Assembly (NCBI GenBank): GCA_000092065.1
Contig: CP000581.1
Strand: one strand, 5' to 3'
DNA: 64,000 bases
Source: Ostreococcus lucimarinus
Lineage: Eukaryota
Shown: positions 40,647 through 40,803 of the stretch, piece by piece
How positions within the stretch are numbered: the stretch's first letter is position 1
How the letters are laid out: each line of letters opens with the position of its first letter
Position numbers and translations under genes: made by a program
Notes under the pieces: model-generated
The model's input: only the letters and a program-made list of their open reading frames with translations
What the model was told of the DNA's origin: nothing
The model's database searches: none

Positions 40647-40803
40647 GTGCGCGAGACGACGGGCGAGGCGAGAGGGACGATTTGTTTTTTCGTCGTTGTT
40701 TGAAAATGAACAACAGCTCCGAGGCGCGAACGCGAACGCGAACGCGAACGAATGGTCGGCGCGAGACTGACGGTGCGGTGACGCGGGTTCGATGTGAACG
40801 CAG
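40647..40803 (+). other. CTPS: Spliceosomal intron (157 nt) in CTP synthase
   Basis: The exon-1 frame hits a stop 19 codons past the donor. CTPS homology resumes at 40804 ([24 protein letters not shown]). The intron runs GTGCGCGAG...GACTGACGG...GAACGCAG| in phase 0, and contains a (GCGAAC)4 repeat. Confidence 0.8.

Follow-up and report, generated by a model that had tools for sequence, protein, structure and literature searches.

An apparent intron family in Ostreococcus lucimarinus is most probably explained by strict splice signals and CG-rich filler

The introns in the genes for CTP synthase (CTPS) and for COP9 signalosome subunit 2 (CSN2, a PCI-domain protein) of Ostreococcus lucimarinus are very probably ordinary canonical U2-type introns, which combine strict splice signals with a filler of CG-rich microsatellites. 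Both lie in the 64,000-nt stretch of contig CP000581.1 that was analysed here (hereafter, the window; Table 1), and a preliminary description of that stretch had raised the possibility that they belonged to a family of related intron sequences recalling the introner elements of Micromonas. We found no support for such a family. The other reading offered in that description, that the shared features reflect the spliceosomal consensus of the lineage, was supported, and the donor and branch signals in question are already known from a study of the same strain (Irimia & Roy 2008, PMC2483917). Five intron-less open reading frames of the window were residue-identical to public proteins, including XP_001415559.1 and XP_001415889.1 of O. 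lucimarinus CCE9901, confirming the host, and the GC content along the window, 51–72%, showed none of the character of the low-GC part of chromosome 2; the nuclear DNA analysed here probably belongs to chromosome 1, judging by the protein numbering.

Table 1. Introns confirmed in the window and sequence features within the CTPS and CSN2 introns.
Feature	Position	Strand	Details
CTPS intron	40647..40803	+	157 nt, phase 0; donor GTGCGCG, acceptor ACGCAG
(GCGAAC)4 perfect hexamer microsatellite, CTPS intron	40726..40749	+	
Extended branch motif GACTGACG, CTPS intron	40765..40772	+	branch A 40770, 33 nt from 3′ splice site
CSN2 intron	8546..8650	−	105 nt; donor GTGCGCC, acceptor CCGTAG
GCGAATGCGAACGCG, 2.5 imperfect GCGAAC units, CSN2 intron	8594..8608	−	
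Branch motif GACTGACG, CSN2 intron	8563..8570	−	branch A 8565, 19 nt from 3′ splice site
Third intron	34924..35090	−	167 nt; donor GTGCGCG, branch AACTGACG (34961-34954), acceptor GCGCAG
Fourth intron	31945..32069	+	125 nt; donor GTGCGCG, branch GACTGACG (32031-32038), unusual AAG acceptor (ACGAAG)
Fifth intron	32157..32338	+	182 nt; donor GTGCGTC, branch CACTGACG (32302-32309), acceptor GCACAG

The CTPS intron follows a Q codon, between TGKVYQ and SVISKE, and the spliced translation was identical to XP_001415558.1 (CTP synthase, 587 aa). Ten transcript contigs (L004–L013; 1.8–1.9 kb) carried an uninterrupted CTPS reading frame with position 40646 joined to 40804, their ends grouping at 40337–40361 and 42313–42369. 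The CSN2 intron contains an in-frame stop, so that its retention would truncate the protein; its excision joined ENAYYNAKG to SLESGANEAAMKGFEEV and gave a translation identical to XP_001415877.1 (PCI-domain protein, 442 aa), and five transcript contigs (L024–L028) with the uninterrupted CSN2 reading frame were gapped at the intron. The contigs of both genes, which come from the Logan assemblies, mapped to the window at 99.7–100% identity. Both introns, originally proposed from breaks in homology, are thus real and their coordinates exact, and the RNA confirmation of the splice junctions that had been suggested as a check was obtained from these contigs.

The preliminary description had counted only two introns in about 40 genes, which proved wrong: tracing the GACTGAC sites, and then the remaining ACTGAC sites, on both strands of the window brought to at least five the number of introns confirmed by spliced proteins or transcript contigs, distributed over four of the ~38–40 genes. 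GACTGAC occurs just four times on the two strands, three times within confirmed introns, and each of the four copies has GTGCG at most 300 nt upstream. The third intron interrupts a Tim17/PRAT-like gene with a SAM domain, whose spliced 263-aa product is XP_001415886.1, and was gapped in contigs L029–L034. The fourth and fifth introns are the first and second introns of one small gene encoding 164 aa (31819–32620, plus strand); its spliced reading frame was found exactly in 15 Logan contigs, and contigs L014–L023 were gapped at both introns, bringing to 16 the transcript contigs gapped exactly at the third, fourth or fifth intron. Altogether, 31 intron-less transcript contigs from independent runs had gaps precisely at the five introns, indicating the removal of all of them from mature mRNA. 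The ends of the contigs cluster at transcript boundaries, and from these clustered ends and the exact gaps we infer that the gapped Logan contigs were derived from cDNA.

The 164-aa protein, encoded by a three-exon gene, is predicted to be hydrophobic over an N-terminal segment and has no Pfam match on record. Two introns in 800 bp are unusually dense for the O. lucimarinus genome. The protein cluster comprises nine members, all from transcript or metagenome assemblies and none with an NCBI accession, and the gene may be missing from the GenBank annotation or be modelled differently there. Several single spliced contigs cover two or three adjacent genes: L014–L017 (30306–34120) span a peptidase M24 gene, the small 164-aa gene and a mitochondrial carrier gene, L024 (10225–7239) spans a RING-variant gene and CSN2, and L030–L031 (36665–34111) span a DnaJ/TPR gene, a 249-aa reading frame and the PRAT-SAM gene. 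These contigs could reflect a very compact genome in which transcripts read through or overlap, or could have been joined in assembly where UTRs overlap. A sixth candidate on the minus strand, ~125 nt long (49514–49390), carries the full signature GTGCGC ... GACTGACG ... AG and was rejected as it lies antisense within an uninterrupted plus-strand reading frame (46898–49966), a putative Nup98-like FG nucleoporin judging by eye from its C-terminal sequence. The signature there is probably a chance match, which shows that the canonical-intron signature alone produces about one false positive per 64 kb.

The splice signals of the five introns were compared with those reported for 319 EST-confirmed introns of O. 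lucimarinus CCE9901 outside chromosome 2, of which 87.2% contain ACTGAC and 66.5% GACTGACG (Irimia & Roy 2008, PMC2483917). The same study found the 5′ splice site, GTGCGTG, to be atypical and very strong (4.8 bits), the distance from branch to AG to peak at ~20–35 nt and CGCAG to be favoured at the 3′ end, a preference that it termed weak. Only its EST-confirmed figures were used here; the predicted-intron counts in its Table 3 (1748 for Chrom 2 and 396 for Non-Chrom 2) look swapped relative to the percentages of that table. In the window, the donor was GTGCGC in four introns and GTGCGT in one, all five branch boxes contained ACTGAC, and three, including those of CTPS and CSN2, matched GACTGACG. 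The branch adenine lay 33 nt (CTPS), 19 nt (CSN2), 32 nt (third), 33 nt (fourth) and 31 nt (fifth intron) from the 3′ splice site, and the acceptor was of the CGCAG type in two of the five. The introns therefore share with the canonical introns of the same strain the GTGCG(T/C) donor, the ACTGAC or GACTGACG box, the branch-to-AG spacing, a location outside chromosome 2 and removal from the mRNA. Nothing essential differs: position +6 is C in four of the five window introns and T in the published consensus, one intron has an AAG acceptor, and the CSN2 spacing falls at the lower edge of the published peak.

Since the donor and branch signals are nearly invariant, any two such introns will resemble each other at the start and both carry GACTGAC close to the 3′ end. 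Of the three resemblances noted in the preliminary description, two, the GTGCGC start and the GACTGAC before the acceptor, were borne out by the sequence and are a known property of the signals of this lineage. GTGCGC by itself is found 108 times in the window. The canonical introns of Micromonas have similar signals, AG/GTGCGT and NCTGAC (Verhelst 2013, PMC3879977). The same link between few introns per gene and a near-invariant 5′ splice site and branch site, which makes unrelated introns look alike, exists in other intron-poor eukaryotes, for instance hemiascomycete yeasts, although the motifs are lineage-specific (GTGCGT and GACTGACG here, GTATGT and TACTAAC there).

The third resemblance, a GCGAAC-like run in each of the two introns, was also present (Table 1), and such words are widespread in the window. 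GCGAAC has 142 copies there, and GCGAACGCGAAC, allowing one mismatch, has 19 matches at 16 loci, 3.5 times more than the 5.4 predicted by dinucleotide shuffles of the whole window; 15 of the 19 lie outside the CTPS and CSN2 introns, and 2 of the 16 loci fall within the 1% of the window that is intronic. Tandem Repeats Finder reported 296 rows of short CG-rich arrays, and the run was absent from three of the five window introns. Outside the window, metagenomes were scanned for GCGAAYGCGAACGCG followed within 10–35 nt by GACTGACG, and 80 listed loci were grouped into 34 clusters. Nine of these 80 loci belonged to O. lucimarinus-type populations and were their CTPS or CSN2 introns, and at least ~17 clusters represented other intron-like sites on marine contigs, with Ostreococcus-type donors and acceptors and a run of at least 2.5 units; the remaining listed loci were chance matches in unrelated sequence, mostly from soil. 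At least two of the extra sites belong to O. lucimarinus (a neighbouring protein of L083 is exactly XP_001420384.1, and one of L061 clusters with XP_001418202.1) and one is O. mediterraneus-like; the host genes of the recurrent run-bearing introns are unrelated. The preliminary description had argued that a lack of copies elsewhere in the genome would speak against a family. The run with GACTGACG does recur in ~17 other introns, but these have only the microsatellite and the splice signals in common.

To judge this recurrence, we assembled 23 introns chosen irrespective of the run: 20 came from the metagenome loci just described and three were the other window introns. A GCGAAC-type 12-mer was present in 3 of the 23, compared with 2.13 ± 1.37 in shuffled sequences (P = 0.35), and GCGAAC was no commoner in these introns than ACGACG, ACCGCG, AGCGCG or ACGGCG. 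The agreement with the dinucleotide expectation indicates that short GCGAAC-type words are a product of the G- and CpG-rich composition of the introns, whose filler consists, on the sense strand, of 35% G, 28% C, 19% A and 17% T. The longer perfect runs resemble common CG-rich microsatellites of the hexamer type, among whose many repeat units GCGAAC is just one: 257 kb of Ostreococcus-type DNA held 49 perfect runs with a period of 6 and a length of at least 15 nt, and only 1 of them was built from GCGAAC. Some intron-specific enrichment of GCGAAC is nevertheless possible, given the excess of 19 over 5.4 and the recurrence in ~17 introns, and the unselected sample comprised only 23 introns.

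These counts bear directly on the proposal that (GCGAAC)n is a selected intronic element, either a spacer that holds short introns above a minimum length or a splicing-factor site just upstream of the branch point, or else the remnant of an ancient, decayed insertion. The orientation of the run agrees with this proposal, being sense in every intron seen (three sense and no antisense occurrences in the unselected set), as do the several introns of 80–125 nt that consist mostly of donor, run, branch box and acceptor, and the fixation of (GCGAAC)4 in seven O. lucimarinus-type genomic copies of the CTPS intron. However, the frequency in unselected introns equalled the dinucleotide expectation, many other hexamer units were equally or more common, and the run was missing from three of the five window introns as well as from the CTPS introns of sister lineages (see below). 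The positional preference was built into the metagenome pattern, which forced the run to lie beside the branch box, and run-rich introns paired with their own 5′ splice sites less well than did shuffled sequences. We therefore consider a selected element or a remnant of this kind very unlikely. Taken more broadly, the idea that sense (GCGAAC)n upstream of the branch in a minority of introns is more than neutral filler, be it as a length-keeping spacer, as a site for a splicing factor or as what is left of the core of a very old intron-generating element, is left with a small chance of being right. The best lead for it would be a pair of introns in unrelated genes, L086 (~11190–11350) and L089 (~4900–5075), in both of which (TC)n, (GCGAAC)n and (GAATGA)n follow one another in this order directly upstream of GACTGACG. 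Alignment of the flanks of these two alone gave z = 3.98, and blastn matched 65 nt at 85% identity; the likeness is either a coincidence or the mark of a small related pair. Orthology was rejected as the source of the similarity between introns m1 and m7, whose host genes were unrelated by tblastx and whose similarity was confined to adjacent microsatellites.

The history of the CTPS intron supports its reading as an ordinary canonical intron. It was retained in all seven O. lucimarinus-type genomic CTPS contigs, and two further Ostreococcus lineages, identified by 87–88% protein identity and the same downstream TIG-domain gene, carry an intron between the same two codons, with GTGCGTG, ACTGACG and TAG as its signals. 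In one lineage (L038) this intron reads GTGCGTG ... GTACTGACG ... TGTAG with a (GAT)n filler, and in the other (L035–L037) it has GACTGACG ... ACGTAG and a different filler. Neither contains the GCGAAC run, and the interiors of the orthologous introns were unalignable save for a short AT-rich core. Occupation of the same site in lineages without the run indicates that the intron is older than the split of these Ostreococcus lineages and that the lineage-specific run appeared later, inside it. This order, intron first and run later, is the reverse of the one expected had a ready-made element been inserted. In Micromonas pusilla CCMP1545, no intron follows codon 95 of the CTPS gene, which is interrupted instead by one intron near codon 9 and another near codon 112. 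These two introns (L040, 501–2494) are ~101 and ~131 nt long and AT-rich, unlike the GC-rich canonical type.

Two further features of the CTPS intron were observed. Its centre (40679–40716) is AT-rich and roughly palindromic (GTTGTTTGAAAATGAACAAC), and a TTTGAAA-type AT-rich palindrome stands at the corresponding place of the orthologous intron in the two other Ostreococcus lineages (L038, ~1040–1075; L035, ~45–70), taking the form of a perfect 22-nt palindrome, TTTTTTTCAAATTTGAAAAAAA, in L035. Words resembling TTTGAAA or AAATTTG also occur in a few other Ostreococcus-type introns, and the palindromic core may be a conserved intronic element. The 9-mer GCGCGAGAC appears twice, directly after the donor GT (40649–40657) and running into the branch box (40759–40767, GCGCGAGACTGACG), probably by chance in low-complexity sequence.

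The reading that the two introns are copies of a mobile element, inserted into genes and spliced out as in M. pusilla CCMP1545, was assessed against the criteria of Worden 2009, as restated by Simmons 2015. Its starting points were the donor hexamer, the GCGAAC-type run and the GACTGACG box common to both introns, to which our scan added further genes, in O. lucimarinus and in relatives of it, with the layout of run plus branch box. The known Micromonas introners, D-IE/IE-A of M. pusilla CCMP1545 and ABC-IE/IE-C of M. commoda RCC299, occur in the same algal order and are likewise sense-oriented and spliced (Worden 2009; Verhelst 2013; Simmons 2015; van Baren 2016), and the IE-C branch box is identical to GACTGACG. 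Sense orientation and spliceosomal removal, seen in the window introns, are true of any intron and do not discriminate. High similarity over the whole element would discriminate, and it was sought by reducing each intron to its interior, stripped of donor, branch box and all sequence 3′ of that box, and scoring local alignments against 1000 dinucleotide-preserving shuffles. The CTPS and CSN2 interiors scored 27 compared with 22.6 ± 4.7 for shuffled sequences (z = 0.92, p = 0.19), so that the resemblance between them was not above chance once the splice signals had been removed. None of the ten pairs among the five window interiors was significant (z from −0.90 to 0.92). Eighteen run-bearing introns, compared in 153 pairs after excision of donor, run, branch box and 3′ tail, gave a mean z of 0.06 (sd 1.08), with 5 pairs at p ≤ 0.05 compared with 7.65 expected.

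Other hallmarks of introners were also sought. The transposon-type introners of Gozashti 2022 are recognized by terminal inverted repeats and/or target-site duplications at their boundaries; the CTPS intron had no inverted repeats at its termini, and ungapped comparisons of the boundaries, with 2–5 identities in 12 positions, revealed no target-site duplication. Introner elements carry a sequence complementary to their own 5′ splice site some tens of nucleotides downstream of it (Simmons 2015). Duplex energies compared with 200 shuffles showed no excess of such complementarity in the five window introns (mean z −0.15) or in 16 run-bearing introns (mean z +0.50), and GCGAAC was rejected as a box of this kind. 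The core of the IE-C consensus (Verhelst 2013, Fig. S11, PMC3879977), TATGGACAATTAGACTGACGTG, was found nowhere in the window even when three mismatches were allowed, and local alignment of IE-C to the window introns recovered the branch box only. IE-C elements are ~64–67 nt long and AT-rich (GTGAGTTTATT...TATGGACAATTAGACTGACGTG), whereas the window introns are GC-rich and differ widely in length (105–182 nt). Micromonas introners are nearly identical over their full length, number tens to thousands of copies and are polymorphic for presence or absence; in contrast, the window introns are mutually unalignable and the CTPS intron, present in all seven O. lucimarinus-type copies and conserved in position across Ostreococcus lineages, bears no sign of recent gain. 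In the part of the genome lists supplementing a 2022 introner survey of thousands of genomes that was examined here, Ostreococcus appeared only among the genomes screened and Micromonas in the introner-bearing table (Gozashti 2022), which, as far as this part goes, is no more than suggestive of Ostreococcus being without introners. An introner-like origin of the CTPS and CSN2 introns thus appears extremely unlikely. Finally, an intron-hosted snoRNA or other known RNA was rejected on the basis of an Rfam search of the whole window, in which no family reached the gathering score, and a selected RNA structure in the CTPS intron on that of a fold less stable than that of shuffled sequences (z = +1.40).

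The interpretation as canonical introns suggests a simple picture. Outside the low-GC part of chromosome 2, the genome is poor in introns, and the few that it has bear unusually strict signals and are recognized through the GTGCG(T/C) 5′ splice site, the (G)ACTGAC(G) branch site and the first AG ~20–35 nt downstream, often in a CGCAG context. Between these signals, the G+C- and CpG-rich interior would be a filler free of constraint, changing fast through substitution and slippage, and short CG-rich hexamer tandem repeats, with GCGAAC as one of many units, would arise and decay there by replication slippage. The run in the CTPS intron probably originated in this way and would have no function.

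Had the introner interpretation been correct, the range of mobile introns would have widened to Ostreococcus, the best-studied minimal eukaryote; the evidence does not support this, and our result is of value mainly as a negative one. Where a genome has few introns and strict splice signals, each intron will seem akin to every other at its two ends, and in a CpG-rich genome introns have low-complexity words in common as well; such a resemblance of ends and words is no ground for calling an introner family. Our analysis also illustrates the use of metagenome and transcriptome assemblies, without a reference genome at hand, for confirming splice junctions and testing the antiquity of an intron.
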